A stretch of DNA of 64,000 bases, from assembly GCF_024437735.1 (NCBI RefSeq), contig NZ_JANFQO010000014.1:1-64000 (forward strand). The letters run 5' to 3'. Origin of the DNA: Tahibacter harae (GTDB taxonomy: Bacteria; Pseudomonadota; Gammaproteobacteria; Xanthomonadales; Rhodanobacteraceae). The position numbers and the translations under genes are program-made. Shown here one piece after another: positions 9,281 through 58,739 of the stretch (position 1 is its first letter; each line of letters begins with the position of its first letter). Under the pieces are notes generated by a model. It was not told the DNA's origin. It did no database searches and was given only the letters and a program-made list of their open reading frames with translations.

Positions 9281-9633
9281 GACTTCACGGTCCTCTTGCC
9301 GGAACGGGTCTTGCGGTGTTTTTCTGCGAACGCGACCAGCGCGGCGCCGACGCGCTCCTTGATGGCCAGGTGATCCCCCGGGTCCAGACCATAGCGCGCG
9401 GCGAGCAGTTTGTAGTCATCCTCGCTCAGGCTCACGGTCAGGCGCGGCCGCTTGGCCTGGCGCAGCAGCGGCAGGCCAAGCACCACGCGCACCTGGTCGG
9501 AATTGGACAGGTTGGCCTCGTAGGCGGCCGCGCGCACCGCCTGCAGCACGGCCTCGGTCACGTCGAAGGCCACCTGGACGGCGCGCAAGGCGGGCTGCGA
9601 GGAACGCCAGCGGCTGGGCAGCTCAGTCTTCAT
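9277..9633 (-). CDS. Hypothetical 118-aa protein (possible RHH-like DNA-binding or adaptor protein)
   Basis: Internal ATG at 9631-9633 (MKTELPSRWRSS...). The upstream part of ORF 9277..9867 is Pro/Arg-rich junk. Overlaps the upstream gene by 11 nt and the NfeD gene by 4 nt, implying translational coupling. Protein composition looks globular. Confidence 0.5.
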   Translation of the reverse strand: MKTELPSRWRSSQPALRAVQVAFDVTEAVLQAVRAAAYEANLSNSDQVRVVLGLPLLRQAKRPRLTVSLSEDDYKLLAARYGLDPGDHLAIKERVGAALVAFAEKHRKTRSGKRTVKS

Positions 9634-10282
9634 CGCGCCTGCCTGGCCGCCGCGGCGGCAGTTTTTCCAGCGCGGCCAGTACGCGGCTGGTGCGGGCGCG
9701 GCGGAAGCCCTTGGGGGCGGGATTCGGGATTGGGGATTCGGGATCGGAAGGCGATGGCTCCGGCCTGGCCTTCTTCTTCGTGCTGACGGAGCCGGGCTTG
9801 GCGGCGGCCGGCCGGGTGGACGCGGGCCTGGCAACCGCGCGTGTGGCGCGGCGGCGCGCGACGGCATCGGTGGCCTGGCCCAGGGTGCTGGCGGCGCGGG
9901 CCATGTCCAGGTCGTGGTCCAGTTCGCGCAACTGGCGGCTGACTTCGTCGTGCAGCAGGTCGAGCTGGGCCAGGTGGGCCTGGAAGCCGCCGGCCAGGCC
10001 GCTGTCGCGGGCGATGGCGCGGGACAGGTCGAGCAGGCGGGCGTGGTAGCGCGGATGCGGCTGCGGCGCGCGGGTCAGCGCCTCCAGCTGGGCCTGGGCA
10101 CGGGCCAGGCGGCGCGCGACGGTCTCGGCGCGGCCGCGGGCCTGGGCCAGTTCGCGCGCGGTGCGGCTGAGCAGCTGGCGGGCCTGGCGCAGCGGTGCCG
10201 GCGCCGCCTCCGGCGCGGACCGGGCCGGGGTTGCGCCCAGGTCCTGGCGCAGCATGTCGCGGATGTCGTCCCACCAGGCCAT
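9623..10282 (-). CDS. Coiled-coil protein, tentatively PspA/IM30 (ESCRT-III-like) family, with a low-complexity heptamer-encoded C-terminal tail
   Basis: ATG at 10280-10282. Residues ~30-140 are heptad-rich and predicted helical (ARGRAETVARRLARAQAQLEALTR...). The E. coli yjfI-yjfJ (pspA-like) pair has the same arrangement with the upstream gene. The C-terminus (SDPESPIPNPAPKG) is encoded by the GGGATTC-type repeat at 9716-9747. The family call is weak. Confidence 0.5.
   Translation of the reverse strand: MAWWDDIRDMLRQDLGATPARSAPEAAPAPLRQARQLLSRTARELAQARGRAETVARRLARAQAQLEALTRAPQPHPRYHARLLDLSRAIARDSGLAGGFQAHLAQLDLLHDEVSRQLRELDHDLDMARAASTLGQATDAVARRRATRAVARPASTRPAAAKPGSVSTKKKARPEPSPSDPESPIPNPAPKGFRRARTSRVLAALEKLPPRRPGRRDED
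9716..9747. repeat. Imperfect GGGATTC heptamer repeat inside a coding region
   Basis: gggattcgggattggggattcgggatcgg. Same unit as the intergenic arrays at 34794-34868 and 34988-35013. Confidence 0.6.
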
Positions 10283-28522: not shown

Positions 28523-29611
28523 ATGCGCACACCTGCACCACCGCCCCCGGCCCAACCCCGCGGCCTCGCCCTTCTGCCGGGCTGGCGCCGCGTGCTGACC
28601 GTGGCGGTCGCGGCGACGCTGTGGGGGCTGCTGGTCAGCCTCGGATTCACGATTCCAAGCTATGTCGTGGTCGGCCGCACGCTGTTCATCGCCTTCGTGC
28701 TGCTGCTGGTATTCAGCCTGCTGGAACAGTGGCCGCGCCAGCTGCCGGGCTGGTTTGCGCGCTGGGTATTGCAGGTGCTGGGCGTCGCGGTCGCCGTGCC
28801 GCCGACCGTGCTCCTGCTGTACCTCTATTGCACCGGCCCGGCGGAAGTGCCGCTATGGCAGGACAAGCAGCGCCTCAGCGGCCTGGCGACGCTCAGCGTC
28901 AGCGGACTGCTGTTCGCGCCCTGGTTCGCCGCGGCGGCGCTGCTGCGCCAGCGCGACAGCACGGTGCGCAACCAGGCGCTCAGCTTCCAGCTGGAGCGCG
29001 AGCGGCTGGAGCGGCGCGCGCTGGACGCGCGCCTGCGCCTGCTGCAGGCGCAGGTGCAGCCGCATTTCCTGTTCAACACCCTGGCCAATGTGCGCGAGCT
29101 GGTCGATTCGGGCTCGCCGCAGGCGTCCGCCGTACTGGGCAGCCTGATCGCCTACCTGCGCGCCGCGGTGCCGCGTCTCAACGATCCCGACAGTACGGTC
29201 GCGCAGGAACTGGAACTGCTGCGCGCCTACCTCGCCATCATGCACCTGCGCATGCCCGACCGGCTGCAGTATTCGCTGCACGCGGACGAAGCCGCGCTGG
29301 CCCTGCGCTGTCCGCCGACCTGCCTGCTCACGCTGGTGGAGAACGCGGTGCGCCACGGCATAGACCCCAGCGAGGAAGGCGGCCGCATCGATGTGCGCGT
29401 ACAGGTCCGCAACGGCCGCTGCCTGGCTCAGGTCAGCGACACCGGCGTGGGCCTGCACGCGGGCAGCGCCGGACTGGGCACGGGCCTGGCCACGCTGCGC
29501 GAACGCCTGCAGCTCAGCTTCGGCCCGACGGCCACGCTCAGCCTGACGCCACAGCAGCCGCACGGCGTCTGCGCCGAACTGGATTTCCCCGCCCAACGAG
29601 GCCAGGCATGA
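28523..29611 (+). CDS. LytS/AlgZ-type sensor histidine kinase
   Basis: About five N-terminal TM helices, then the His_kinase (LytS-type) signature LQAQVQPHFLFNTLANV and an HATPase_c domain. The stop overlaps the regulator start (ATGA). Confidence 0.8.
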   Translation: MRTPAPPPPAQPRGLALLPGWRRVLTVAVAATLWGLLVSLGFTIPSYVVVGRTLFIAFVLLLVFSLLEQWPRQLPGWFARWVLQVLGVAVAVPPTVLLLYLYCTGPAEVPLWQDKQRLSGLATLSVSGLLFAPWFAAAALLRQRDSTVRNQALSFQLERERLERRALDARLRLLQAQVQPHFLFNTLANVRELVDSGSPQASAVLGSLIAYLRAAVPRLNDPDSTVAQELELLRAYLAIMHLRMPDRLQYSLHADEAALALRCPPTCLLTLVENAVRHGIDPSEEGGRIDVRVQVRNGRCLAQVSDTGVGLHAGSAGLGTGLATLRERLQLSFGPTATLSLTPQQPHGVCAELDFPAQRGQA

Positions 29612-30399
29612 ATCCCCGCCGCCCCACCGCGCTGATCGCCGACGACGAACCGCTGCTGCGCAAGGCGCTCGGCCGCCTGCTCGCCGCGGCCTGGCCGGAG
29701 CTGGAAATCGTCGCCCAGGCACGCAACGGCCGCGAGGCGGTGGAACAGTTTGAACGCCTGCGCCCGGACATCTGCTTCCTCGACGTGCACATGCCCGGGC
29801 TCTCCGGCGTGGAAGCCGCGCAGCACATCGGCCGCCGCGCCCACCTGGTCTTCGTCACCGCCTACGACCAGTACGCGCTGCAGGCCTTCGAGCACGGCGC
29901 GCTGGACTATCTGATGAAGCCGGTGGAGACCGCGCGTCTGGCCGATACCGTCGCGCGCCTGCAGGAACGCCTGCGCGCCGTCGCGCCGCCGCTGGCCGAT
30001 ACCGAGGCCCTGCTCGAAGCCCTGGCCGCTCAGCTGCAGAAGAAGGCCGCGGCGCCGGCGCCGCTGCGCTGGATCCGCGCCTCGGTAGGCCAGTCGCTGC
30101 GCCTGATCGCGGTGGAGGACATCGCCTTCCTGCGCTCGGACGAGAAATACACCCTGATCGCCTGGCAGGGCGAAGGTGGCAAGCCCGGCGAGGCGCTGAT
30201 ACGCACGCCGCTGAAGGAACTGCTCACCCAGCTGGACCCGGCCCAGTTCGCCCAGGTGCACCGCTCGGTGGTGGTCAACCTGCGCGCGATCAGCCATGTC
30301 GTGCGCGGCGACAACGAGACCGCCGACATCCACCTGCGCGGCCGCGGCGAAGTGCTGCCGGTGAGCCGCAGCTATCTGCATCTGTTCCGCCAGATGTAG
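29608..30399 (+). CDS. LytTR-family response regulator
   Basis: Receiver domain (ALIADDEPLLRKAL...DICFLDVHMPGLSG...) plus a C-terminal LytTR DNA-binding domain (...QVHRSVVVNLRAISHVVRGDNETADIHLRG...). Confidence 0.85.
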   Translation: MNPRRPTALIADDEPLLRKALGRLLAAAWPELEIVAQARNGREAVEQFERLRPDICFLDVHMPGLSGVEAAQHIGRRAHLVFVTAYDQYALQAFEHGALDYLMKPVETARLADTVARLQERLRAVAPPLADTEALLEALAAQLQKKAAAPAPLRWIRASVGQSLRLIAVEDIAFLRSDEKYTLIAWQGEGGKPGEALIRTPLKELLTQLDPAQFAQVHRSVVVNLRAISHVVRGDNETADIHLRGRGEVLPVSRSYLHLFRQM

Positions 30400-30975
30400 C
30401 CGCCGCGCGGGATCCGGGATCTGCGGATCCGCCGTGCGGCGGCCGGCGGCGTTCCGCCCGGGCGCCATCGCCCGTCGCTTGTCATATAAATACCGGATCG
30501 ACGATCCCGCCGCCCCGTGAGCTGGCTCACGCAATGTTGCACTGGCGGCGAAAAACGACGGCGCACTGCAACATCAGCGGAAAAGAAAGATGACGTGCCG
30601 CAGAAGCGGCACGCCGTTCAGCCATCCATACGTCTTCAGGCCTATCTGCACGGCGCGTCGATCGAATCCCGATCCCGCGTCCTGCGCTTATGACGCTTGC
30701 GTGTTTTTTGCGCAATTGGACGGCACGCAACGTTTTCGCAGCGGAATCTGTCGCGACGCCGCCGCGCCGCGCGTGCGAAGGTGTGTCCGCGCCGATGCGG
30801 ATGTACCGCCGGTTTCGTACGAATGCCTACGGGGGCATTCGCCATTCCCGGTCCGTAGCCCAGGCACTGCGCCGGGAGACGGAGTCTGCGCGCAATCTCC
30901 GGACCGATCTGCCCGGCCGAAGAGCCAGGCAGACATAGAACTACTGCCCAAGCCAAAAGCCAATCAGGGGGAATC

Positions 30976-33919: not shown

Positions 33920-34612
33920 CTAACCGCCGGGTGCTGCGCCCTGCAAATCCGCGGTTTTCGCTTGCGCCGGCACACGAACCGGCAGCGGCCGCCGGCGCCG
34001 CAGCCGCAGCAGCCAGCAGAGCGTCAGCAGCGCCGCCGCGAATACCGGCAGCGACAGCAGTCCGGAGCTGCGCAATGCCGGCGGAAACAGCCTGGCCTGG
34101 CCGAGAAAGAACGACGCGCTGGCGACGAACAGCGCGAAGCCCAGCCGCCACAGATGCCGCGCCAATCGCGGCGCGCCTTCGATCGCGCCCCGGCGCAGCA
34201 GCCGCCAGTCCGCCATGGCGCACAGCAAGGCGACGCCGCCGAAGATGAAGCAACCCAGGCCCATGCCGCGATTCCGGCCGCCGATCAGCGCCGCACCGGC
34301 GGTCCACGCCAGCACACCGGTCAGCAGCGCAAGGCACATCAGCGCCTGCAGCAACCTGCGCGACTGCGCCACCGGCCGCAGCACAGCCAGCCAGCCCGTC
34401 GCCACCAGATAGAACGTCAGCAGGCCGGCGCTGAGCGATAGCCATTCCGGCTTCAGCAGCGCGAGCACCGCGCCGCTGGCGCTCATGCCCAGCATGGCGG
34501 CAACGAACACCAGCCCCGCGCGCCGGTGCAGCCCGCCGCCCTTGCGCGCGAGCATGGCCAGCGCGCCGGCGATCAGGGCCAGCAGTCCGGCGGCGATATG
34601 GATGGGCAGCAT
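33920..34612 (-). CDS. Integral membrane protein, DUF2306-like (HRRxG motifs)
   Basis: Internal ATG at 34610-34612 (MLPIHIAAGLLALIAGALAMLARKGGGLHRRAGLVFV...). About six TM helices. The upstream part of the ORF-track frame runs across the heptamer repeats and is rejected. Confidence 0.55.
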   Translation of the reverse strand: MLPIHIAAGLLALIAGALAMLARKGGGLHRRAGLVFVAAMLGMSASGAVLALLKPEWLSLSAGLLTFYLVATGWLAVLRPVAQSRRLLQALMCLALLTGVLAWTAGAALIGGRNRGMGLGCFIFGGVALLCAMADWRLLRRGAIEGAPRLARHLWRLGFALFVASASFFLGQARLFPPALRSSGLLSLPVFAAALLTLCWLLRLRRRRPLPVRVPAQAKTADLQGAAPGG

Positions 34613-34793
34613 GGCGCGTCTCCTGGGTGGGTGCAGCCGCCGCGGCGGCCTGGCGAAGCCGCGCGGAACGCCGGCGATCGTGGCCCCGCGCAGCACCTGC
34701 CGGCGAAAGCGCACCGGCTGCGCCACCTTGAAGCCGCCGCCGGCCGCAGCAAAACGCATTGCGACGGAAGACCGTGACTGAGGGCCGAGCTGC

Positions 34794-34868
34794 GGGATTC
34801 GGGATTCGGGATTCGGGATTCGGGATTCGGGATTCGAGATTCGGATTCGGATTCGGATTCGGATTGGG
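34794..34868. repeat. Heptamer microsatellite array (GGGATTC)5 continuing as degenerate GAGATTC/GGATTC units
   Basis: Five perfect GGGATTC copies at 34794-34828, followed by about six degenerate 6-7-nt units. Intergenic, between the divergent DUF2306-like genes. Confidence 0.8.
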
Positions 34869-34987
34869 ATTCGGGACCGGACCAGATCCGCAAACGGCAG
34901 CCTATCCGCGCGCCGAAAGAAACCCCACGCCAGGACAGAGCCCAGCCGGAGCAGGAAGCGACGCATCGCCGGATCCCGCCTCTCCAC

Positions 34988-35013
34988 TGCCGAAACCCAA
35001 ATCCCAAATCCCG
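34988..35013. repeat. Inverted copy of the heptamer array (AAATCCC/GAATCCC units, i.e. GGGATTT/GGGATTC on the other strand)
   Basis: aaacccaaatcccaaatcccgaatcccg, about 120 bp from the forward array. The two arrays form a large imperfect inverted repeat. Confidence 0.7.
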
Positions 35014-35190
35014 AATCCCGTTCCTCCACTCCCAAAAAACCGTCATCCGTCGCATCGCGCTCCAGGCGCCTGCCGCTCCTGGCCACACTGCGCCTGCCGC
35101 TGCCCGTATGACGACAGGCGCGCCGTCCAAATCCGGCGCGCCTCATCCGTCCGCCGCAGCGGCCCGTTTTCCACACCAGGCAGGCATTCC

Positions 35191-36078
35191 ATGAGCGCAA
35201 GTCCCGCAACTGCGACCCCGCTGGCCGAACGCGCGCAGCCGCGCGCGGGCAATGGCGTCATTCCGGCCGGCTACGGCGAAGGTCGGCTGGCGCGCGCAGG
35301 CGCACCGGCGCTGAAGGCCGCCGCGGCGTTCTGCTACGGCGTGATGGCGCTGGGGCAACTCATCTTCGCCATCTACGTTGCCGGCTTCTACGGCGGCGCG
35401 CTGGCGCAGGGAAACCTGTATACGTGGAATAAAGTACTTCCGCACGGCTATGTCGCGGGCGATGCGCTGGGCAACCTGATCCTTGCCGTACATCTGGCCT
35501 TTGCCGTGGTCATCACCCTGGGCGGCAGCCTGCAACTGCTGCCGGCGCTGCGCCGGCGCGCGCCGCGGCTGCATCGCTGGAACGGCCGGCTGTATCTGTT
35601 CGCCGCCCTGCTGCTCAGCCTGGGCGGACTGGTGCTGCTGTGGACGCGCGACCGGGTGGGCGACCTGCCGCAGCATCTGGCGATCAGCCTCAATGCGCTG
35701 TTGATCCTGTTGTTCGGCCTGGCCACGCTGCGCAGCGCCGTCGCGCGCCGTTTCGAGGCGCACCGGCGCTGGGCGCTGCGCCTGTTCCTGGCGGTCAGCG
35801 GTGTATGGTTCTTCCGCGTGGGGCTGATGTTCTGGCTTATCGCCAACCGCGGCCCGGCCGGTTTCGATCCGCAGACCTTCAGCGGTCCGTTTCTGACTTT
35901 CCTTGCCTTTGCCCAGTACCTGCTGCCGCTGGCGCTGCTGGAACTGTACCTGCGCGCGCAGCAGAACCGCCGCGGCCTGACCAAGCTGGCGACAGCGGCG
36001 CTGCTCGCGCTGGCCACGCTGGCGATGGCCGCGGGCATAGCCGGGGCGGCACTCGTGATGTGGTTGCCGCGGCTGTAG
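35191..36078 (+). CDS. Integral membrane protein, DUF2306-like paralog
   Basis: ATG at 35191 (MSASPATATPLAER...). Multiple TM helices with APRLHRWNGRLYLF and AHRRWALRLFLAV motifs resembling the divergent neighbour. Confidence 0.6.
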   Translation: MSASPATATPLAERAQPRAGNGVIPAGYGEGRLARAGAPALKAAAAFCYGVMALGQLIFAIYVAGFYGGALAQGNLYTWNKVLPHGYVAGDALGNLILAVHLAFAVVITLGGSLQLLPALRRRAPRLHRWNGRLYLFAALLLSLGGLVLLWTRDRVGDLPQHLAISLNALLILLFGLATLRSAVARRFEAHRRWALRLFLAVSGVWFFRVGLMFWLIANRGPAGFDPQTFSGPFLTFLAFAQYLLPLALLELYLRAQQNRRGLTKLATAALLALATLAMAAGIAGAALVMWLPRL

Positions 36079-37278: not shown

Positions 37279-37971
37279 TCAGCAGCCGGTCACTTCCTGC
37301 TGCGCCACCTGGCGCACCAGCTCGCCCTTGCCGGCCGCGCCGGACAGGAACAGGGTGGGCCGGCTCAGGTTGTAGTGGTCGGTGGTATCCAGCAGCAGAT
37401 CGACGCGGCCGTCGCGGTCCAGGTCGCCGGCAAACAGCAGCCGCGGCACGCCTTCGCCGAAGCCCGGCCGGCCGTCCTCGCCGGCCAGCGCCTCGCGTTC
37501 CAGCAGCACCTGGCGCTGCCCGCCCTCGGCCAGGCTGAGGCGGCAGCGGCCGTCGGCCGTGGTGCATTCGGCAACCAGGCGGAAAGGCTTGCCGGCCAGC
37601 GTGGACTCGAACGGCCGGGCCGTGGAGAAGTCCACCTCCGCCGGCGCGGCAACGGGCACATCGCCGGGCGCCAGCGCCGCGATGCCGCGCAGGAACACCA
37701 GCGCCTCGATGCCGGGCGCGGCGACGCTGCGGCCGGTCTTCTCGTCATCGGCGTCCAGCACCGGATCGTTGACGGCTTCGACCTTGAGCCGCGTGCTCTG
37801 CAGCCGCGCCTTGCCGTCAGCGACGACCAGGGCCAGCCAGGTCTCGCCGTCGCGGGCGCTCACTTCGTCGCCGTGGAAATTCTCGCCGGGCAGGTTGAGC
37901 GCGGGCTTGGGTGCGGCGGCACCGGCGATGCCGGCCAGCAGCAACAGGGACAGGACAGCGTATCGGTTCAT
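37279..37971 (-). CDS. Secreted hypothetical protein
   Basis: ATG at 37969-37971 (MNRYAVLSLLLLAGIAGAAAP...); an alternative ATG lies 12 nt upstream. Signal peptide present. No family recognised. Confidence 0.55.
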   Translation of the reverse strand: MNRYAVLSLLLLAGIAGAAAPKPALNLPGENFHGDEVSARDGETWLALVVADGKARLQSTRLKVEAVNDPVLDADDEKTGRSVAAPGIEALVFLRGIAALAPGDVPVAAPAEVDFSTARPFESTLAGKPFRLVAECTTADGRCRLSLAEGGQRQVLLEREALAGEDGRPGFGEGVPRLLFAGDLDRDGRVDLLLDTTDHYNLSRPTLFLSGAAGKGELVRQVAQQEVTGC

Positions 37972-38140: not shown

Positions 38141-38157
38141 CCGGGATTCGGGATTGG
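38141..38157. repeat. Short GGGATTC-type heptamer remnant
   Basis: cgggattcgggattgg in the 475-bp intergenic region upstream of the duplicated secreted-protein genes. Confidence 0.5.
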
Positions 38158-39460: not shown

Positions 39461-40213
39461 TCAGAACCGCAGACGCGCGATTTCCTTGGTCGCCGTCTGT
39501 CCGTCGATCGTATAGCTCAGCCTGGCGAGGTCTTCGCGGCCGGGCACCATGCTGAAATCCATGCTCACCTGGCCTACGGCGTGGTGGGCGGCTCCGGTGA
39601 GCGGGTAGATCGCCGCCGTCCACGGCGGGCCGTCGCTGCGGATGACCTGGCCTTCCCAGCGGGTCGGCGACGCCCAGCCGCCCGACTGCAGCGAATACCA
39701 CTGCGGCTGGCGCTGCGCATCGTAGACAAACAGGGCGCCGAACAACGAACCAACCACGCCCTGGTGCAAGGACAGGCCCCAGCCCGGTTCGCTGGCGACG
39801 CCCCACAGGCCGCTGTAGTCCGCGATGGGCAGTTGCACGCCGGGCACCATCGCGACCGAGGCGATGGAATCCACGGTGAACCTCACCCGTTCGGCGGCCT
39901 GGTAGGTGTCGCCGTCGACGAATACGGCCTCGTAGTTGCCGGCGGGAAAGGCGCCGAGCTGGATATCGACCACTTTGGGAAAACCCGGCACCAGACACTG
40001 GCGCGGCAGGTGCCGCACGATCACGGCCTTGTCTGCCGCCATCTCCACCGCCACCGTATCCTCGGCGAAGCGGCAGCTGTCGGTAGTCAGGCGCAGGTGC
40101 ACGCGCTCGAACTGCACCGGGTGCGCGGGCACCACCTCCATCTGGGCAGTGGCGGCCAGCGGCAGGAAAGCCGCCGCGGCGGCCAGACGGAAAAACAATC
40201 GATCCACGTTCAT
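39461..40213 (-). CDS. Secreted protein of unknown function, tandem paralog B (250 aa)
   Basis: AGGAG then ATG at 40211-40213 ([24 protein letters not shown]...). The longer ORF-track start is rejected by analogy with paralog A and by RBS position. Confidence 0.7.
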
Positions 40214-40513
40214 GTTGTGAAGCTCCTGGTTGTGCATCGTCCCCAAGGCCTGGGACGCATCCGCAGCGCGCAGCGTCGCAGTCCTGCGCCAGGGCTTTCC
40301 CCGTACCGTCGCTCCGCCGGCTGCCCCGGCATCACGGCCGGGCCCGCCAGCCCGACATATCGCTCCATCCGGAATCAGCGATATAATCCGCGCCCTCCTC
40401 GCCGCCGAGGGGCGCTGCAAGTCCGGTCGCGGGTCCACGCGAACACGGAATCAGGCTCGGCGGAATCGGGTTCCATTCCGACACCGCGCCCGCCCAAAGC
40501 ACTGGAGTTCACC

Positions 40514-41941
<1,428 letters not shown>

Positions 41942-50089: not shown

Positions 50090-53000
50090 TCAGAAGCAAG
50101 GCGCGGTACCGGTGGTATACGAGGTAAACGAGTTCGTCGTCGCCGTCGGCTGGGCGTTGGTGTTCGCACCGTTGAGGTAGTTCACTACGTCCGTGATGGT
50201 GCCCGTGCCGCCAAGATTGCGCAGGCGGAAGTTGGCGAGCGGCGCCGTGCCCGTCTCGGCCGGGTTGATGCGCATGCGCATGTTGCCGGCCGCGACACTG
50301 CCGTCCCAGGTGCCGGCGATGTTGTTGCCCTGGATATCGGCGCACAACTGGCTGGAATCGCCGTCGTCGTTGCCCGACTGCACGAACACGGCGTGGCCGA
50401 CGCGCGTGCCGGCCGGAACCGGCGGATCGGGCGAAAGGAACTGGTTGTTCGTGATCACGACCCCGATGGTGTCGTTCAGCTGGCTGATCACCTCCACGGC
50501 GCGCTGGCGGATGTGCTGGACCGTGTTGTTGGAGATGGTCATGCGCATGTCGCCGCCGGTACCTTCGTTGGTGACCGAGACGCCGTTGCAGCCTGCGCAG
50601 TTGTTGCCGCTGTCGACGGCGGCTCCGCCGATCGTGTTGTTGCTGAACGTGCCCACGAACAGCCCCGTCGCGCCCGTGCCCTTGCGGAAGGTCACCGGTG
50701 TATTGCCCGAGGTTACCGTGCCGCTCACCGTGATGGTGTTGTTCTGCGCGGTGGCGTTCATCGTTGCCGCGTTGTCAGTCAGGAACTGGAGGGCCAGCGA
50801 GTTATCGGTGAACGTGTTCGCCACCGTCGTACCGACGTTGAACGTCATGTTCGCATTGCCGATGCCCTGGGCCGTCAGCGCCGTACCGAAGTTGCGGCGG
50901 AAGGTCGAACCGTTGATCGCGGTCGTCATCTGCGAAGTGCCATGGCCGGCGATCAGCACGCCCTGTGCCGCCGTGGAAGTGTAGATGCCGCGGTCGAAGG
51001 TGGAGTTGGTGATCGCCATGGTCAGCGCGCTGGTCGCATTCGGGTTCTGCACCTCGAACTGGCGGTGGTAGTTGCCCGTGAACGACGAGTTGCTGATGTT
51101 GACCGTGCCGCGCAGGTTGACGAACTGCACGCCATCTTCGAGGTTTTCGTCGCCGACATTCGCCACCGTCACGTCGTCCATGGTCAGGCCGTTGACGTCG
51201 TTGCCGTTGATGCCCATCTGCGTGCCGCCGGAGACATCGACGTTGCTCAGGGCGACGGCGCTGGTGGCCACCATGTGGATGGCGGCGCCGCAATTGGTGT
51301 TGGTGCCGCCGAATGCGTTGCCGCAGGTCGCCGCGCCGTCCTGGTTGGTGCCGTTGCCGGTGAAGCCCATGTTCGACAGGGTCAGGCTCTTCAGGCCGTT
51401 GGTCGACACACCGCGCGCAGTCTTGTTGTTGATCGTGCCGCCGGAGTTGGTGGTCGTGCCCACGCCGGTGATGGTCAGGCCGCCGTTGCCCGCGCCGGTG
51501 CCGGTATTGACCAGCGAAATGCCGTTCGCACCGGTGCCGTTGTTGGTGATGCTGCGGAAGGTCAGGCCGCCGGAACCGATCTGCGTGGTGTTGACGTTGA
51601 GCGAGGTGCCGGTACCGGTGGTGCTGATGGTGTTGACGATCGCGCCCCCCGCCGTGACGGTCAGGGTGCCGCCGCCGGTCGCGTCGATGCCATCGCCGCT
51701 GGCCGAGGTGATGGTCAGGCCGCCGGAGAAGTTCACCGTGCCGCTGGTCTGGTGGCGCACGCCGTCGCCAAGCGTGGTGGTGAGGCCGACGGCACCGCTG
51801 AAGTTCATCGTGCTCGCGCCGTTCGTGCTGAGATCGATCGCGTTGGCCGCGGCCGAACTCAGCGTGATCGCACCCGTGTAGCTCTGCGTGCCGCCGGTGT
51901 TGTTGCTCAGGCGGATGCCGGTGCCGGTGTTGTTCTTGCTGATGGTGCCGGCGTAGGTGAAGGTCGGCGAGGACGAGTCGATGCGGATGGCTTCGTTGGT
52001 CGGGTTGGTGATGGCCGAGCCGGTATTGGAGAAGTTGATCGTGCCGGCCGAATTGGTGGTGATGTCGATGCCGGCGTCGCCGCCGTTCAGGGTCACCACG
52101 CCGCTCGCCGTGAAGTTGCTGTCCACGTTGCTGAGGTTGATGCCGGTGCCGTTGGTGGCGCTCAGCGCTCCGCTCAGCGTGATGTTGCCGCTGGCCTTGT
52201 TCTGCACGTCGATCAGCAGGCCCGCGCTGGTCTTGCTCATGCTGCCGGCATAGGTGACCGCAACCGTGCCGCCGCTGACGTTGAAGCTGGTGCCGGTGGC
52301 GCCGGACAGCGCGCCCGTGCCCAGGTCGACCGTGCCGTTGACCGTGGTCAGCGAGACATTGTTGGCGCCGCCGCTTGAACTCAGCGCAGCCACGATGGAA
52401 CCGGCGGCGAAGGTGCCGTTGGTGAGGTTCAGCGCCTGGCCGTTGGTGTTGATGCGCACGTCGTCGTACACGGTCAGCGTGCCGAAGCCGGTGCCGGCGA
52501 TGGCTCCGCCGGTGACGTTGCCGATCTGCACGCCGCGCACCGTGTTGTTGCTGCCCAGGGTGATGCCGTTGCCGGCGGCATTGGTAATGACGGGCGGCGT
52601 CTGGTCGACCAGCGGACGCGCAATCGAATAGCTCGGCGGCGTGATGCCCAGTTCGGCGTCGAAGTCGTTCACCGTGGCCGCATCCAGGCCGTGGCCGGCC
52701 AGCTCCACGCCGTTGGCCAGCGTGATGCCGGTGGTGTAGTTGCCCGAGAACACGAAGATCTTGTCGCCGCTGCTGGTCGCCACGGTCGCCGCCGCGCTCA
52801 GCGTCTGCAGCGGCTGCAGCAGCGTGCCGTCGCGCGTGCCGATCACGACCGCATCGTCATCGACGAAGAAGATGCGCGGGCCGCTCACGGTCAGGCTGAC
52901 GGTGATGTTCGCGCTGCAGGCCACCGGCGAGCCGTCGTCGCAGATGGTGTACTGGAAGGTGTCGGTGCCGGTGAAGCCGGACGGCGGGTTGTAGGTGTAC

Positions 53001-56000
53001 GCGCCGTTGGCGCTGATCGCCACGTCGCCGCCGTTGACCGACACCGTCGGCGAGGTGCCGATGGTGAAGTTGCTGCTGTCCGGATCGGTGATGTTGGCCA
53101 GTACCAGCAGATCGCCGGCGGCGCCGTCGTTGATGCCGACGGCGATGTTGGTGTGCACCGGCAGCGCGGCCGGAGCGACCACGACCGGCGGATCGTTGAC
53201 GCAGGTAACCGTCACCGACACGGTTGCCGTCGGCGTCGCGCCTGCCGGGTTCAGCGTGTAGGTGAACGTGTCCGGCGTGCCGCCGATCTGCGTGTTGCAG
53301 TAGTTCGGATTGGGCTGGTAGGTCAGGCCCGTGCCGCCGCCGGTGATGACGACGGTGCCGTTCGCCGGCTGCGTGACCGAGGCAACCGCCTTCGGTCCGC
53401 CGTCGACGTCGGTGTCGTTCGCCAGCACGGGAATGGCCGTCGCCGCCGCGTCTTCGAGCATCGTCGCCGTGTCATTCACCGCGACCGGCGCATCGTCGAC
53501 GCAGGTCACCGACACGGTGACCGTCGCGGTCGGCGTGGGGCCGGCCGGGTTCAAGGTGTAGGTGAACGTGTCCAGCGTCGTGCCCGGCGGCGTGTTGCAG
53601 TAGTTCGGGTTGGGCTGGTAGCTCAGGCCCGTGCCGCCGCCGGTGATGACGACAGTGCCGTTGGCCGGCTGGGTCACGGACGCGACCGCGAGCGGCGAGC
53701 CGTCCGGGTTGGAGTCGTTGGCCAGCACGTCGATCGGCGTCGCGGCGGCATCTTCGGCAACTGTCGCGGCATCGGCCACCGCGACCGGCGGATCGACGAC
53801 GCAGGTGACCGCGACGGACACCGTTGCGCTGCTGCCGCCCGGCGTCAGCGTATAGGTGAACGTGTCGGGCGTGCCCGGTGTCGGCGCGTTGCAATAGTTC
53901 GCGTTCGGCTGATAGGTCAGGCCGCTGCCGCCGCCGGTGATGGCGACGACACCGTTGGCCGGCTGGGTGATGGCCGTGATGGTGATGGGACCGCCATCCG
54001 GATCGGTGTCGTTGACCAGCACCGGGATCGCCGTGGCCGGATCGTCCTCGGTGATGGTCGCCGAATCGTTGACCGCGGTCGGCGCGTCGTCCACGCAGGT
54101 CACGGTCATGAGCACCGTCGCGGTCGAGCCGCCCGGGGCCAGGGTGTAGGTGAACGTGTCCGGCGTCGTGCCCGGAGGCGCGTTGCAGTAGTTCGGGTTG
54201 GGCTGGTAGGTCAGGCCCGTGCCGCCGCCGGTGATGACGACGCTGCCGTTGAGCGGCTGGGTGACCGAGGCGACCGAGATCGGGCCGGCATCGATATCGG
54301 TGTCGTTGGCCAGCACGTTGACCGCGGTCGCGGCCGCGTCTTCGGTCACGGTGGCGGCGTCGTTGACGGCGGCCGGCGGATCGTCGTCCGCGTTGATGGT
54401 GATGGTCAGGGTGGCCGGCGCGCTGGTGTCGGCGCCGCTGTTGGCGGTGCCGCCGTTGTCCTGCAGCGTGACCGTGAAGACCGCGGTACCGCTCGCGTTC
54501 GCGGCCGGAGTGAAATTCAGCTGGCCCGCGACCGAGACCGTCGGCAGCGACGAGAACAGCGGGCCGCCGCTCACGACGGCGACGTTGAAGCCGAAGGACT
54601 GGCCGGATTCATCGGCCGGGCCGGAGGAAATCGCCGTGGCCCAGGCGATGCTGGCCGGGCCGGAGTCTTCGTTGACCACCGGGTCGGCGCCCGCGGTGAA
54701 GCTGGGCGCGTCATTGACCGCAGTGACGTTGATGGTGAAGTTCTGCGGCGCCGAGGTGTCGTTGCCGCCGCTGCCCGTGCCGCCATTGTCCTGCGCGATC
54801 ACGGTGATCGTGGCCGAGCCGTTGGCGTTGGCCGCCGGCGTATAGGTCAGCGTGCCGTCGCCGGCAATGGCCGGGCCGGCGCTGAACAGGGCGGGATTGC
54901 TGTTGCCGGTAACGGTGAAGCTGACCGTCTGGCTGCCGTCGTCGCCGTCGGCGATGCCAGTGACGAAGCCGGCCGCGGTCTGCGCGCCGGCGTCTTCCAG
55001 CACGGTCTGCGCGCCGCCGACGGTGAACACCGGCGGATCGTTGACGTTGTTGACGGTGATGGTGAAGGTCTGCGCCGCGGAGGTGTCCTGGCCGCTGTTG
55101 GCGGTGCCGCCGTTGTCCTGCAGGGTGGAGCTGACCGTGGCCGTGCCGAAGGTGCCGTTCTGCGCGGTGAAGGTCAGCGTGCCGTTCGGCGCCACGGCCG
55201 GGGCCGCGCTGAAGGCCAGGCTGCCGGTGGTCGCGGTCACCGCGGTGGTGAAGCTCAGGGTCTGGCCGGCTTCGTCGGCCGGACCGGCCGAGATCGCCGT
55301 GTGGAAATTGGCAAAGGTCTGCGGGCCGGCGCTTTCCAGCGCACTGGCGGCAGTGCCGCCGGTGAAGCTGGGCGCATCGTTGACCGCAGTGACATTGATG
55401 GTGAAGTTCTGCGGCGCCGAGGTGTCGTTGCCGCCGTTGCCGGTGCCGCCGTTGTCCTGCGCGATCACGGTGATCGTGGCCGAGCCGTTGGCGTTGGCCG
55501 CCGGCGTATAGGTCAGCGTGCCGTCGCCGGCGATGGCCGGGCCGGCGCTGAACAGGGCGGGATTGCTGTTGCCGGTAACGGTGAAGCTAACCGTCTGGCT
55601 GCCGTCGTCGCCGTCGGCGATGCCGGTGACGAAGCCGGCCGCGGTCTGCGCGCCGGCGTCTTCCAGCACGGTCTGCGCGCCGCCGACGGTGAACACCGGC
55701 GGATCGTTGACGTTGTTGACGGTGATGGTGAAGGTCTGCGCCGCGGAGGTGTCCTGGCCGCTGTTGGCGGTGCCGCCGTTGTCCTGCAGGGTGGAGCTGA
55801 CCGTGGCCGTGCCGAAGGTGCCGTTCTGCGCGGTGAAGGTCAGCGTGCCGTTCGGCGCCACGGCCGGGGCCGCGCTGAAGGCCAGGCTGCCGGTGGTCGC
55901 GGTCACCGTGGTGGTGAAGCTCAGGGTCTGGCCGGCTTCGTCGGCCGGACCGGCCGAGATCGCCGTGTGGAAATTGGCAAAGGTCTGCGGGCCGGCGCTT

Positions 56001-58432
56001 TCCAGCACCGAGGCCGAGGTGCCGCCGCTGAAGCTCGGCGCATCGTTGACCGCGGTGACGGTGATGGTGAAGGTCTGCGTGGCCGAGGCGTCGATGCCGC
56101 CGTTGCCGGTGCCGCCGTTGTCATGCAGCAGCAGCGTGATGGTCGCCGTGCCGTTGGCGTTGGGCGCCGCGGTATAGCTCAGCGCGCCGGTCGGCGAGAC
56201 CGCGGGTGCGGTGGCGAACAGGGCCGGGTTGCTGTTGGCGGTGACCTGGAAATCCAGGGCCTGGGTGTTGCCGTCGCCGTCGCTGATCGCGGTGGCCCAG
56301 GGATTGACCGTCTGCGGGCCGGCATCTTCGAGCGAGGTCTGGTTGGGACCGACGGTGAAGCTGGGCGCGTGATTGATGCCCTGCACCGTGATGGTGAAGG
56401 TCTGCGTGGCCGAGGTGTCGGCGCCGCCGTTGGCGACACCGCCGTTGTCGGCCAGCTGCAAGGTGATCGTGGCCGTGCCGCTGACGCCGGCGGCCGGGGT
56501 ATAGGTCAGTGCACCAGTCGGCGAGATCGCCGGCGCGGCGCTGAACAGCGCGGGATTGGTGTTATTGGTGACGGCGAAGGCGAGCGTCTGCGCGGCTTCG
56601 TCGGCCGGGCCGGGCGAGATCGCCGTGGCCCAGGGGTTCACGCTCTGCGCGCTGGCATTCTCGAACACGGTCTGGTTGGGACCGACGGTGAAGGACGGCG
56701 CATCGTTGACCGCCGTCACCGTGATGGTGAAGGTCTGCGGCGCCGAGGTATCGGAGCCGCCGAAGGCGGTGCCGCCGTTGTCGTGCAGCACTACGCTGAT
56801 GCTGGCCGTGCCGTTGGCGTTCGGCGCAGCGGTATAGGTCAGCACGCCGGTGGGCGAGACTGCCGGCGCGGTCGCGAACAGGGCCGGGTTGGTGTTGCCG
56901 GTGATCTGGAAATCGACGACCTGGGTGTTGCCGTCGCCGTCGCTGATCGCGCTGGCCCAGGCGTTGACCGTCTGCGCGCCGGCGTCCTCGAGCGAGGTCT
57001 GGTTCGCGCCGGCGGTGAAGCTGGGCGCGTGGTTGATCGCGTTGACGTTGATGACGAAGGTCTGCGCGGCCGAAGTGTCGATGCCGCCATTGGCGGTGCC
57101 GCCGTTGTCCTGGGCGACCACGCTGACGGTGGCGATGCCCGAGGTGCCGTTGGTCGCGGTGAAGGTCAGCGTGCCGTTGGCGGCGACCGCGGGCGCGGCG
57201 GCGAAGGTCAGGTTGCCGGTGGTGCTGACGACGCTGGCGGTGAAGGCCACGGTCTGCGCGGCCTCGTCGGCCGGACCGGCGCTGATCGCGGTGGCCCAGG
57301 CGTTGACGGTCTGCGCGCCGGCGTTCTCCGGCACGGCCTGGTCGGCGCCGGCGGTGAAAGACGGCGGATCGTTGACCGGCGTGACCGTGATCGCGGCGGT
57401 GGCCGGCGCCGAGGCGCCCTGGCCGTCGCTGCCGGTGAAGGTGAAGGAATCCGCACCGTTGAGGTTGGCGGTCGGCGTATAGACCACGGTCGCCGTGGTC
57501 GCATTGACCGGCGTGATCGCGCCCAGGGTGCCGCGGGCCGGCGGAGTGGCGATGGCGAAGGTGATCGGATCGCCTTCGACGTCGGTGCCGGTGAGGGTCA
57601 GGGTAACCGGGGTTTCTTCCAGCGTGGTCACCGCCGGCGTGCTCACGACGGGCGGGTTGTTCTGCAGGTCGCGCACGTCGATGCGCAGGAAGACGCGGCC
57701 GTTCTCGATCGCGCCGAACAGGTTGACCATGTCGATCGCGCTTTCGCCGCTGGTGGCGTCGCCGGCCGGGTCGCCGGCCAGCGGCGGCGTGCCGCTCCAG
57801 TCGCCGACCTGGCCGTCGGCGGCGAAATTCGCCGCGATGGCGATGCCGCAGGCAACGAAGAACAGCGACAGCGCGCGCCAGGCCGCGGTGCGGCGGGCGC
57901 GCCGCGCGCCGTAGAAGGCGATCAGCCCCAGCAGCACGAACAGCAGCGGCCAGGACAGGAAAGGCACCGGCATGGCCGGCAGGCCGAGGATGATCGGGCC
58001 GCCGCCGGCGGCGGCGTTGAGTTCGTCGGTGCCGCTGGCGCTCTGGGCGACCACCGCCAGGCGCAGACCGCGGCTGTTGCCCAGCTGCAGCGAGGCCATG
58101 GCGTCGGCCAGTTCGACCACGTCCGCGCCGCTGGTGCCGTTGTTCAGGCCTACCGGATAGCCGCCGCCGACGGCGGTGCCCGGACCGAACGTGCTGCCGG
58201 ACTGGCAGGGCGCCCGGCGCACCGCGACCACCTGGGGAGCGGTGCCGCCGGTGACATCGACTTCCAGGCGGGAATCCGCACCGGCGATGGCCGGCACGGT
58301 GCAGCCGGTGCCCGGGTTGAGATCCCCGTCTACATAGATGTGGTAGGAGTAGGTCTGTGCGCTGGCCGCGTTTACCGCGCACAACGCCAGAAGGAATACG
58401 ACGACCGCCCAGGCCGCTTTCCGGATACGCAT
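50090..58432 (-). CDS. Giant secreted repeat-rich adhesin-like protein (~2780 aa): N-terminal region, >10 tandem ~105-aa Ig/cadherin-like (VCBS-type) domains, ~5 Ig-like group domains, C-terminal right-handed parallel beta-helix
   Basis: ATG at 58430-58432 (MRIRKAAWAVVVFLLALCAVNAASAQ signal peptide); the 43-aa upstream extension in the ORF track is rejected. Repeats of the form VNDAPSFT...TFTITV and VNDSATITEDDPATAIPVLVNDTDPDGGP. Pectate-lyase-like beta-helix repeats (ISNNTVQHIRQRAVEV..., GNVTGGAIAGTG...). Ends ...GTAPCF. Confidence 0.9.
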   Translation of the reverse strand: MRIRKAAWAVVVFLLALCAVNAASAQTYSYHIYVDGDLNPGTGCTVPAIAGADSRLEVDVTGGTAPQVVAVRRAPCQSGSTFGPGTAVGGGYPVGLNNGTSGADVVELADAMASLQLGNSRGLRLAVVAQSASGTDELNAAAGGGPIILGLPAMPVPFLSWPLLFVLLGLIAFYGARRARRTAAWRALSLFFVACGIAIAANFAADGQVGDWSGTPPLAGDPAGDATSGESAIDMVNLFGAIENGRVFLRIDVRDLQNNPPVVSTPAVTTLEETPVTLTLTGTDVEGDPITFAIATPPARGTLGAITPVNATTATVVYTPTANLNGADSFTFTGSDGQGASAPATAAITVTPVNDPPSFTAGADQAVPENAGAQTVNAWATAISAGPADEAAQTVAFTASVVSTTGNLTFAAAPAVAANGTLTFTATNGTSGIATVSVVAQDNGGTANGGIDTSAAQTFVINVNAINHAPSFTAGANQTSLEDAGAQTVNAWASAISDGDGNTQVVDFQITGNTNPALFATAPAVSPTGVLTYTAAPNANGTASISVVLHDNGGTAFGGSDTSAPQTFTITVTAVNDAPSFTVGPNQTVFENASAQSVNPWATAISPGPADEAAQTLAFAVTNNTNPALFSAAPAISPTGALTYTPAAGVSGTATITLQLADNGGVANGGADTSATQTFTITVQGINHAPSFTVGPNQTSLEDAGPQTVNPWATAISDGDGNTQALDFQVTANSNPALFATAPAVSPTGALSYTAAPNANGTATITLLLHDNGGTGNGGIDASATQTFTITVTAVNDAPSFSGGTSASVLESAGPQTFANFHTAISAGPADEAGQTLSFTTTVTATTGSLAFSAAPAVAPNGTLTFTAQNGTFGTATVSSTLQDNGGTANSGQDTSAAQTFTITVNNVNDPPVFTVGGAQTVLEDAGAQTAAGFVTGIADGDDGSQTVSFTVTGNSNPALFSAGPAIAGDGTLTYTPAANANGSATITVIAQDNGGTGNGGNDTSAPQNFTINVTAVNDAPSFTGGTAASALESAGPQTFANFHTAISAGPADEAGQTLSFTTAVTATTGSLAFSAAPAVAPNGTLTFTAQNGTFGTATVSSTLQDNGGTANSGQDTSAAQTFTITVNNVNDPPVFTVGGAQTVLEDAGAQTAAGFVTGIADGDDGSQTVSFTVTGNSNPALFSAGPAIAGDGTLTYTPAANANGSATITVIAQDNGGTGSGGNDTSAPQNFTINVTAVNDAPSFTAGADPVVNEDSGPASIAWATAISSGPADESGQSFGFNVAVVSGGPLFSSLPTVSVAGQLNFTPAANASGTAVFTVTLQDNGGTANSGADTSAPATLTITINADDDPPAAVNDAATVTEDAAATAVNVLANDTDIDAGPISVASVTQPLNGSVVITGGGTGLTYQPNPNYCNAPPGTTPDTFTYTLAPGGSTATVLMTVTCVDDAPTAVNDSATITEDDPATAIPVLVNDTDPDGGPITITAITQPANGVVAITGGGSGLTYQPNANYCNAPTPGTPDTFTYTLTPGGSSATVSVAVTCVVDPPVAVADAATVAEDAAATPIDVLANDSNPDGSPLAVASVTQPANGTVVITGGGTGLSYQPNPNYCNTPPGTTLDTFTYTLNPAGPTPTATVTVSVTCVDDAPVAVNDTATMLEDAAATAIPVLANDTDVDGGPKAVASVTQPANGTVVITGGGTGLTYQPNPNYCNTQIGGTPDTFTYTLNPAGATPTATVSVTVTCVNDPPVVVAPAALPVHTNIAVGINDGAAGDLLVLANITDPDSSNFTIGTSPTVSVNGGDVAISANGAYTYNPPSGFTGTDTFQYTICDDGSPVACSANITVSLTVSGPRIFFVDDDAVVIGTRDGTLLQPLQTLSAAATVATSSGDKIFVFSGNYTTGITLANGVELAGHGLDAATVNDFDAELGITPPSYSIARPLVDQTPPVITNAAGNGITLGSNNTVRGVQIGNVTGGAIAGTGFGTLTVYDDVRINTNGQALNLTNGTFAAGSIVAALSSSGGANNVSLTTVNGTVDLGTGALSGATGTSFNVSGGTVAVTYAGSMSKTSAGLLIDVQNKASGNITLSGALSATNGTGINLSNVDSNFTASGVVTLNGGDAGIDITTNSAGTINFSNTGSAITNPTNEAIRIDSSSPTFTYAGTISKNNTGTGIRLSNNTGGTQSYTGAITLSSAAANAIDLSTNGASTMNFSGAVGLTTTLGDGVRHQTSGTVNFSGGLTITSASGDGIDATGGGTLTVTAGGAIVNTISTTGTGTSLNVNTTQIGSGGLTFRSITNNGTGANGISLVNTGTGAGNGGLTITGVGTTTNSGGTINNKTARGVSTNGLKSLTLSNMGFTGNGTNQDGAATCGNAFGGTNTNCGAAIHMVATSAVALSNVDVSGGTQMGINGNDVNGLTMDDVTVANVGDENLEDGVQFVNLRGTVNISNSSFTGNYHRQFEVQNPNATSALTMAITNSTFDRGIYTSTAAQGVLIAGHGTSQMTTAINGSTFRRNFGTALTAQGIGNANMTFNVGTTVANTFTDNSLALQFLTDNAATMNATAQNNTITVSGTVTSGNTPVTFRKGTGATGLFVGTFSNNTIGGAAVDSGNNCAGCNGVSVTNEGTGGDMRMTISNNTVQHIRQRAVEVISQLNDTIGVVITNNQFLSPDPPVPAGTRVGHAVFVQSGNDDGDSSQLCADIQGNNIAGTWDGSVAAGNMRMRINPAETGTAPLANFRLRNLGGTGTITDVVNYLNGANTNAQPTATTNSFTSYTTGTAPCF
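54690..56030. repeat. Two near-identical 666-bp tandem direct repeats inside the adhesin gene (each encoding two ~111-aa domains)
   Basis: Plus-strand frame ORFs 54852..55511 and 55518..56177 translate identically for ~165 of 219 residues, offset by exactly 666 bp. The 54219..54845 ORF shares the same tail. The repeat boundaries given are approximate. Confidence 0.8.
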
Positions 58433-58739
58433 AAACCCATCCCCTTGCAAACTGATTGCGGGCGGCCGTTGCACGCCCGACTTCCCTTGCCGACCAACGG
58501 GTTGCTGCTTGCCGGCGGCGCACTCCCCACGCCTGCCGGATTCCCCCTCATTGGCCCGCAAATCACTGTGTTGCGCTCTATGCTAAACCAAGGACGTGAA
58601 CATTTGTCTCGTTTGTGAGAAGTTTCTCCAAACGCCACGGCCGTTTAGCTTCGTGAAACCGCTCCATCCGGCTATGCGCTAGGCAAAGCCGGCCCTCGCC
58701 GCTAGGCTCTCGGGATTTCGCCCGCCCGGAATCCTCGCC

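Follow-up and report, generated by a model that had tools for sequence, protein, structure and literature searches.

One of the questions raised by the first 64,000 nucleotides of the Tahibacter harae contig NZ_JANFQO010000014.1 (the whole stretch that was analyzed, called here the window) is what two inverted arrays of the heptamer GGGATTC are doing between two divergently transcribed genes for DUF2306-type membrane proteins. The intergenic region that holds them is 578 bp long and runs from the ATG at 34612 of the minus-strand gene to the ATG at 35191 of the plus-strand gene. An earlier note on this DNA, made from the letters alone, had offered a slippage switch acting through promoter spacing, binding sites for a repeat-recognising protein and the scar of a small mobile element as possible answers. 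We consider it likely that the arrays are a paired instance of the (GGGANTN)n repeats of Xanthomonas and other Lysobacterales, built here on the GGGATTC unit: a slippage-prone tract which is probably near-neutral and may have G-quadruplex potential.

The pair and the DNA between its two arms are made of the following parts:

34794-34835, plus strand: core of the left array, six perfect GGGATTC units
34836-34876, plus strand: degenerate tail of the left array (GAGATTC, (GGATTC)3, GGATT, GGGATTC, GGGA)
34877-34991, no strand: spacer of 115 bp between the arrays, unique and not conserved in relatives
34992-35019, minus strand: right array, inverted (GGGATTC GGGATTT GGGATTT GGGTTTC), with four G3 tracts

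The six G3 tracts of the left core, spaced by 4-nt loops, match the G3N4 quadruplex pattern, and the core is followed by GAGATTC (34836-34842) and three GGATTC hexamers (34843-34860), with the end of the left array at 34876. Tandem Repeats Finder reports this array as 34793-34876 with a period of 7, 12.7 copies and a score of 126. Read on the plus strand, the right array is GAAACCC AAATCCC AAATCCC GAATCCC. The inverted arrays described in the earlier note are thus present between the divergent genes, and all four of the repeat sites that it listed in the window were found, with coordinates that proved slightly short; its gap of about 120 bp comes close to the measured 115 bp, whereas its five perfect left units have to be corrected to six. 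A two-unit pattern allowing up to two mismatches gives 13 matches in the window as opposed to a mean of 0.38 in dinucleotide-preserving shuffles, and none of 100 shuffles gave 13 or more. The window has a G+C content of 68.7% and a coding share of 86.5%. Rfam and tRNA scans at the locus gave no match.

How the arrays change can be seen in relatives, of which five contigs cover the locus. One strain (L002) has a right-hand protein 99% identical to that of the window, L001 shows 88% protein identity and L203/L204 87%, and in L208/L209 the left-hand protein is 79% identical, which is also the identity of the closest relative in a homolog search with the left-hand protein. Between L002 and the window there are three indels, and no others, in ~510 aligned bp, and every one of them is exactly one repeat unit inside a repeat tract: L002 lacks one GGATTC of the left tail, one heptamer of the right array and one GAAA at 34915-34922, where the spacer of the window carries the micro-duplication GAAAGAAA and L002 has a single copy. 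The L002 contig starts inside the left array, as is expected with a k=31 assembly, so that the left heptamer count is not comparable between the two. The arrays change length by slipped-strand mispairing, one unit per step, and the expectation of the earlier note that copy number would differ across strains was borne out both by these unit-sized indels and by the 1-6 units of the other relatives.

In the lineages of L001, L203 and L208, the left site carries G-type and the right site C-type units, the latter directly upstream of the conserved motif CCGTC.TCC.TCGCATCGC. The units in these relatives are degenerate and drift through GGGATTC, GGGAATC, GGGATCG and AGATTCG, GGGAATC occurring at the right-hand site of L001, whilst the spacers are non-homologous and differ in length. 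No empty site, that is, one without arrays, was seen in the four lineages. Because the same two sites are occupied in relatives with different units, the paired arrays are old at both sites and evolve in place by unit gain, loss and decay. Each of the two sites has carried a proto-array from a time before the divergence of the related lineages, and the left run of six perfect units is a recent expansion in the lineage of the window. At L203 930-1310 the left DUF2306 gene was not called and appears to be 5'-truncated or decayed, and a degenerate G-array (GGGATCG GGGACTG GGGATTC GGGAAG) abuts the end of its remnant. A metagenome scan with the right-hand protein yielded relatives of at most 65% identity, and an array of at least three GGGRNTN units was found in only 1 of 86 scanned loci (80 metagenome loci, the L203-L207 contigs and L001), a count that is uninformative for this locus.

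Repeats of this type have been catalogued in Xanthomonas, where 186 arrays of GGGAATC or (GGGANTN)n were described in X. campestris and 183 in X. citri (Rehm et al., 2015; PMC4692102). These arrays have 2-26 units with a mode of four, 89-93% of them are intergenic and only 7-8% lie between divergent open reading frames (ORFs) (PMC4692102). Each genome has 70-75 cases of two nearby sites on opposite strands in what was called a 'convergent' orientation, and the G strand lies near the 5' neighbouring ORF regardless of the orientation of that ORF, at a mean distance of 28 nt (PMC4692102). It was shown that (GGGAATC)4 forms a K+-dependent quadruplex in vitro with a melting midpoint near 50 C and that the C strand has i-motif signatures (PMC4692102). 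Shared loci of X. campestris and X. citri vary extensively in length and sequence, and neither an association with insertion sequences (IS) nor a function or regulatory role was found (PMC4692102). Similar 7-bp units are standard polymorphic variable-number tandem repeat (VNTR) markers in Xanthomonas typing (PMC6482255), and a survey of 7,006 prokaryotic genomes ranked heptamers first in abundance among intergenic tandem repeats and gave 'no clear clue' to what they do (PMC6344855). Judged by the tandem-array definition of Rehm et al. (at least two units and at least 14 bp of (GGGANTN)n), both arrays of the window pair belong to this class, as GGGATTC fits GGGANTN. They also share with it a mostly intergenic, multi-copy distribution (four of five arrays in 64 kb), a G-first inverted pair and length variation among relatives.

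In order to place the GGGATTC unit more widely, one genome per species was scanned for exact (GGGATTC)4, which gave at least 120 loci. Among the matches listed, at least 69 were from named Lysobacterales, at least 23 from Acidobacteriota (mainly Vicinamibacterales) and at least three from cyanobacteria. The Lysobacterales matches, with at least 15 genus- or family-level names among those listed, include many species of Xanthomonas as well as Lysobacter, Stenotrophomonas, Luteimonas, Rhodanobacter, Dokdonella, Aquimonas, Thermomonas and Pseudoxanthomonas. From the matches listed, the 102 loci with at least 60% G+C were taken as a census set, which contains 129 arrays of at least four units. Of these arrays 64 lie between aligned genes, 20 are in a convergent and 12 (9%) in a divergent context, 15 are inside genes (12 with the G strand antisense) and six overlap a gene end. 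Median distances to an ORF boundary are 18 nt for the 5' end of the G strand and 108 nt for its 3' end, and the 5' end is the nearer one in 80 of 96 arrays. A partner on the opposite strand within 400 bp was found for 56 of the 129, and in all 60 pairings the G-array comes before the C-array, exactly as in the window. Because (GGGATTC)n-spacer-(GAATCCC)m is its own reverse complement, this 60:0 polarity is a genuine asymmetry.

Several individual loci of the census were also looked at. In L076, an unrelated metagenome-assembled genome (MAG), a divergent gene pair encloses (GGGATTC)4, 109 bp and (GAATCCC)5, which matches the layout of the window; at L076 6456-6627 the C-array runs exactly up to the GTG start codon of a TatD-like gene, in a junction free of a Shine-Dalgarno sequence. 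It is common for census arrays to end no more than ~20 nt from a called start codon. In a Thermomonas MAG (L033 2235-2540) a long (GGGAGAC)n array abuts GGGATTC arrays, giving several G3N4 units in one tract. In a Rhodanobacter MAG (L062 879-3571) four paired cassettes occupy successive gaps of a type II secretion operon with gspE/F/G-like genes, and two of the four cassette spacers have the 14-nt core CAAGGCGCGCAAGC in common.

Some of our observations weigh against reading the window pair as a near-neutral member of this class. The left array lies 181 bp and the right array 171 bp from the start codon of its gene, as compared with the census median of 18 nt, the mean of 28 nt in Rehm et al. 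and the proximity of less than 50 bp to an ORF used there, although the orientation is the expected one. The divergent context is under-represented both in Xanthomonas (7-8%) and in the census (9%). Neither array contains a GGGAATC unit, at least one of which is asked for by the operational screen of Rehm et al. The census genes were called from third-position GC content by a home-made caller, and their start sites are imprecise. Furthermore, we infer the near-neutrality of the pair, and the strict G-first polarity suggests a constraint beyond pure slippage.

The position of the arrays relative to the two genes is important for any regulatory explanation, and it is set by these neighbouring features:

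33920-34612, minus strand: left gene, DUF2306-like membrane protein of 230 amino acids, with a Pfam score under the cut-off
34613-34793, minus strand: conserved upstream block of the left gene, 76-78% identical to L001, with an AGGAG Shine-Dalgarno sequence before the ATG at 34612
35020-35190, plus strand: conserved upstream block of the right gene, 99.4% identical to L002 and 75-77% to L001, L203 and L208
35191-36078, plus strand: right gene, DUF2306 membrane protein of 295 amino acids (Pfam DUF2306)

The right protein matches Pfam DUF2306 with E=3.8e-13 and the left one reaches 26.2 bits, under the 31.6-bit cut-off. The description of the two as divergent DUF2306-like paralogs therefore stands as far as both match the family, the left one below threshold, but paralogy holds only at the family level, as the two proteins are barely similar (BLASTP E=0.08). 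Among named sequences, three window proteins have their best homologs in Tahibacter, Dokdonella, Lysobacter and a 'Rhodanobacteraceae bacterium', which places the window in the Lysobacterales (Xanthomonadales). In the first 200 nt of the two genes the identity is 80-90%, and the upstream blocks, 76-78% identical to L001, come close to that. It was also seen that the ~170 bp upstream of the right gene are kept about as well as coding sequence in L001, L203 and L208, and that the right block opens with the motif CCGTC.TCC.TCGCATCGCGCTCCAG directly after the C-array. A promoter and terminator consensus scan of 34500-35300 gave nothing, including no sigma-70-like consensus, and the right block (35020-35190) matches nothing in Rfam and is free of any recognisable sigma-70 promoter. 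Based on their conservation, the two upstream blocks most likely hold the promoters, whose position we infer, together with the 5' untranslated regions. The array pair would then sit between, and not within, two divergent promoter regions, and therefore the gain or loss of a unit would change only the distance between these regions.

Three more arrays of the window, all outside the DUF2306 locus, bear on the same question:

9719-9746, plus strand: four interrupted units (GGGATTC GGGATTG GGGATTC GGGATCG), with the G strand antisense to the minus-strand gene 9623-10282
30409-30431, plus strand: variant-unit array (GGGATCC GGGATCT GCGGATC), 9 nt past the stop codon of gene 29608-30399
38143-38156, plus strand: two units (GGGATTC GGGATTG), intergenic, upstream of the minus-strand gene ending at 37279

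The array at 30409-30431 lies on the coding strand in a position typical for the repeat family and had been overlooked before, whilst the remnant given earlier as 38141-38157 is confirmed as the two intergenic units above, with the G strand on the non-coding strand of the gene. In all five arrays of the window it is the 5' end of the G strand that points to the nearer ORF. The coding copy, given earlier as 9716-9747 and here refined, is in frame within the minus-strand ORF 9623-10282, where it encodes ..SDPESPIPNPAPKG.. and lies in a variable linker of a 219-amino-acid protein as PESPIPNP. This linker is of low complexity and joins a conserved N-terminal coiled-coil-like region to the C-terminal motif GFRRAR..RV..LE.LP.RRPGRRDED. 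The name 'PspA-like' that was attached to the gene agrees with the source annotation of one homolog (P0153), but the protein has no Pfam match. Relatives at 83-91% alignment identity retain the repeat peptide as PESPIPNP, PESSISNP or PESSI--P, and their sole differences in the array are 6-nt in-frame indels; the number of units is the same in a fragment with 99% identity over the part that matched, and more distant relatives are without the peptide. Three heptamers make 21 nt, or seven codons, so that a slip of a single unit would destroy the conserved C-terminus. Because only frame-preserving changes have survived in the coding copy, the aligned relatives argue against a frameshift switch, and the frame-shifting slippage proposed for the coding repeat is not what they display.

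One explanation that was suggested for the divergent locus is a phase-variable control region, in which the gain or loss of 7 bp would shift spacing or helical phasing and so switch one or both DUF2306 genes. Near-identical strains do differ in array length by whole units, a difference seen between samples, a 7-bp step rotates the helical phase by ~240 degrees in B-DNA geometry, and the six perfect units suggest a recent and active expansion. Yet over 170 bp separate the arrays from the ATGs, neither array falls in a conserved promoter-proximal block, and an array of 83 bp is too long for a -35/-10 spacer. Neither array takes up the position of a contingency locus (between -35 and -10, at a regulator site or in the 5' coding part of a gene), and the coding copy is found in a C-terminal linker. 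Relatives with 1-6 degenerate units retain both genes, except for L203 with its decayed left gene, and the family adjoins housekeeping genes and enters operons, as in the type II secretion operon of L062. Rehm et al. also consider phase variation unlikely for the Xanthomonas heptamers (PMC4692102). A promoter-spacing switch in the style of Neisseria or Haemophilus is thus not supported by the distal position of the arrays, their length and their ordinary neighbours, and we regard it as quite improbable; it is weakened rather than eliminated, because the consensus search located no promoter. An even less probable option, to which we give very little weight, is a mobile or protein-recognised element, a remnant or target resembling a miniature inverted-repeat transposable element (MITE) or a doublet of repetitive extragenic palindromes (REPIN), with the heptamer arrays as its terminal inverted repeats. 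The fixed polarity of the pairs, 60 of 60, would fit such an element, and so would the common motifs at the inner borders, where G-N-A-A-R-R-G-C follows the G-array and the C-array is preceded by a T-rich stretch. However, BLAST finds no second copy of the window spacer in the window or in any fetched locus, and in an all-against-all BLAST 43 pair spacers are essentially unrelated, barring the 14-nt match within L062 and two short ones. The spacer ends form 4.73 complementary pairs within a locus against 4.76 across loci, which is no co-variation, and the arrays are ancestral here in four lineages. (GGGATTC)4 is also rare in viral contigs, with five matches among 2.9 million, and an IS association was not seen by Rehm et al. 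(PMC4692102). The idea that the arrays are the scar of a small mobile element is therefore not supported, given a unique spacer, unrelated spacers elsewhere and arrays that are ancestral at the site.

Another hypothesis is that non-B DNA has been selected at this site, where a quadruplex (or an i-motif or long hairpin) would absorb the supercoiling of the divergent promoters or block stray transcription, and so act as an insulator or coupler. According to the twin-domain model, negative supercoiling builds up between divergent promoters, and a supercoil-driven quadruplex between the two promoters here is physically plausible. In each of the two arrays four or more G3 tracts are separated by 4-nt loops, a quadruplex-aware ViennaRNA fold with RNA parameters predicts a quadruplex in three of three arrays tested, the sister unit (GGGAATC)4 forms a K+-dependent quadruplex in vitro (PMC4692102), and the 60/60 G-first polarity argues for some constraint. 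On the other hand, the quadruplex fold of the left array (-34.06 kcal/mol) is no more stable than an ordinary hairpin (-33.9 kcal/mol), the fold of the 246-nt region is unremarkable (z = -1.2), and the arms, 115 bp apart, are too distant for a cruciform to extrude easily. In relatives, moreover, neither the length nor the unit sequence of the arrays is conserved, and Rehm et al. report no regulatory role (PMC4692102). Selection for such a structure is on balance unlikely. A cruciform or long hairpin as the primary explanation was dropped, as the whole inverted pair folded as single-stranded DNA gives z = -1.2. A related and likewise doubtful possibility is that the paired arrays are one composite intergenic element, of an architecture conserved across Lysobacterales and seen in Acidobacteriota too, with a functional G-first polarity, which here would insulate or couple the DUF2306 promoters. 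Its layout may start from an ORF end with (GGGATTC)n and continue with an A-rich border, a variable core (in many cases a GC-rich hairpin) and a T-rich border, after which come (GAATCCC)m and the next ORF, and the element may serve as a bidirectional terminator or insulator, as a structure at mRNA ends or as a site for recognition by a dedicated protein. Just 3' of the G-arrays the consensus is G-N-A-A-R-R-G-C, with G in 92% at position 1, A in 41-58% at positions 3-6, then G in 59% and C in 51%; just 5' of the C-arrays the sequence is T-rich, and 19 of 37 spacers have TTT among their last 12 nt, as opposed to one of 37 with TTT among its first 12 nt. Judging from these sequences, many cassettes have the appearance of a bidirectional-terminator-like core with a heptamer array on either side. 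The divergent locus of the window is without such a terminator-like core.

Examples of these borders among the loci L003 to L122 are L077 2991-3208, L015 7646-7742, L091 6010-6136 and L062 879-3571. Several spacers consist of a GC-rich hairpin followed by a T run, in the manner of an intrinsic terminator (L091 6037-6116, L028 3084-3156 and L003 4531-4592).

The window has two other elements away from the heptamer arrays. An S-adenosylhomocysteine (SAH) riboswitch aptamer at 40401-40498 on the plus strand scores 42.2 bits, over the Rfam gathering threshold, and presumably controls a downstream gene inside the ORF called as 39833-41941. Large tandem repeats at 53178-57200, with periods of 294-339 bp and 4-7.6 copies, lie within a minus-strand ORF of 2,786 amino acids (50090-58450), which probably encodes a giant repetitive surface or adhesin-like protein.

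Returning to the paired heptamer repeat, the locus itself is of little consequence. Its arrays are unusually long and perfect, and their best use would be as a VNTR marker for strain typing. The repeat class is already catalogued in Xanthomonas, and the remaining novelty is in the architecture of the family and not in this locus. The census adds that the GGGATTC variant is widespread in named Lysobacterales and is found in Acidobacteriota as well, that the G-first polarity is absolute in the sample and that the borders are A- and T-rich. These regularities could guide experiments on the function of the repeat family.

Such a repeat can be compared with several known systems. With the contingency repeats of Neisseria and Haemophilus the arrays share a slippage-driven change of length, and one window copy is coding, where a single-unit change would shift the frame. 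Those repeats, however, have units of 1-5 nt and are placed between -35 and -10, close to regulator sites or early in the coding sequence of surface-protein genes, whereas here the promoter blocks separate the paired arrays from the genes, the coding copy belongs to a C-terminal linker and has changed in frame only, and the neighbours are ordinary genes. The repetitive extragenic palindromes (REPs), bacterial interspersed mosaic elements (BIMEs) and REPINs of enterobacteria and pseudomonads are similar in being short intergenic inverted cassettes of fixed polarity, often within operons or by terminators. Yet REPs are unique conserved palindromes of 20-40 nt that are spread by REP-associated tyrosine transposases (RAYTs), whilst the arms here are variable-number tandem 7-mers with unrelated interiors. 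The markers used in multilocus VNTR analysis (MLVA) of Xanthomonas (such as TCGGGAA, TGGGGAA, GAATCGG and ATTCCCC; PMC6482255) are also heptamers whose copy number differs between close strains, as it does between the window and L002, although they were chosen for typing plant pathogens and the comparison here is between two strains, with the left heptamer count unreadable in L002. From the (GGGANTN)n repeats of Xanthomonas the pair differs in its GGGATTC unit without GGGAATC, in its Rhodanobacteraceae-like host, in its distance of ~175 bp from the ORFs as compared with less than 50 bp and in its divergent context, which is the rare one; the quadruplex data belong to the GGGAATC sister unit, and for GGGATTC a quadruplex is predicted from the motif. 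By analogy with that unit, the G strand could fold as an intramolecular G-quadruplex and the C strand as an i-motif. The likeness covers the 7-bp G3-containing unit, the same bacterial order, the mostly intergenic location with at least four G tracts, the G-first inverted pairs, the G-strand 5' end toward the nearer ORF and the variation of length and units among relatives, and the density is comparable, at 4-5 arrays per 64 kb in the window and ~2.3 per 64 kb in X. campestris.

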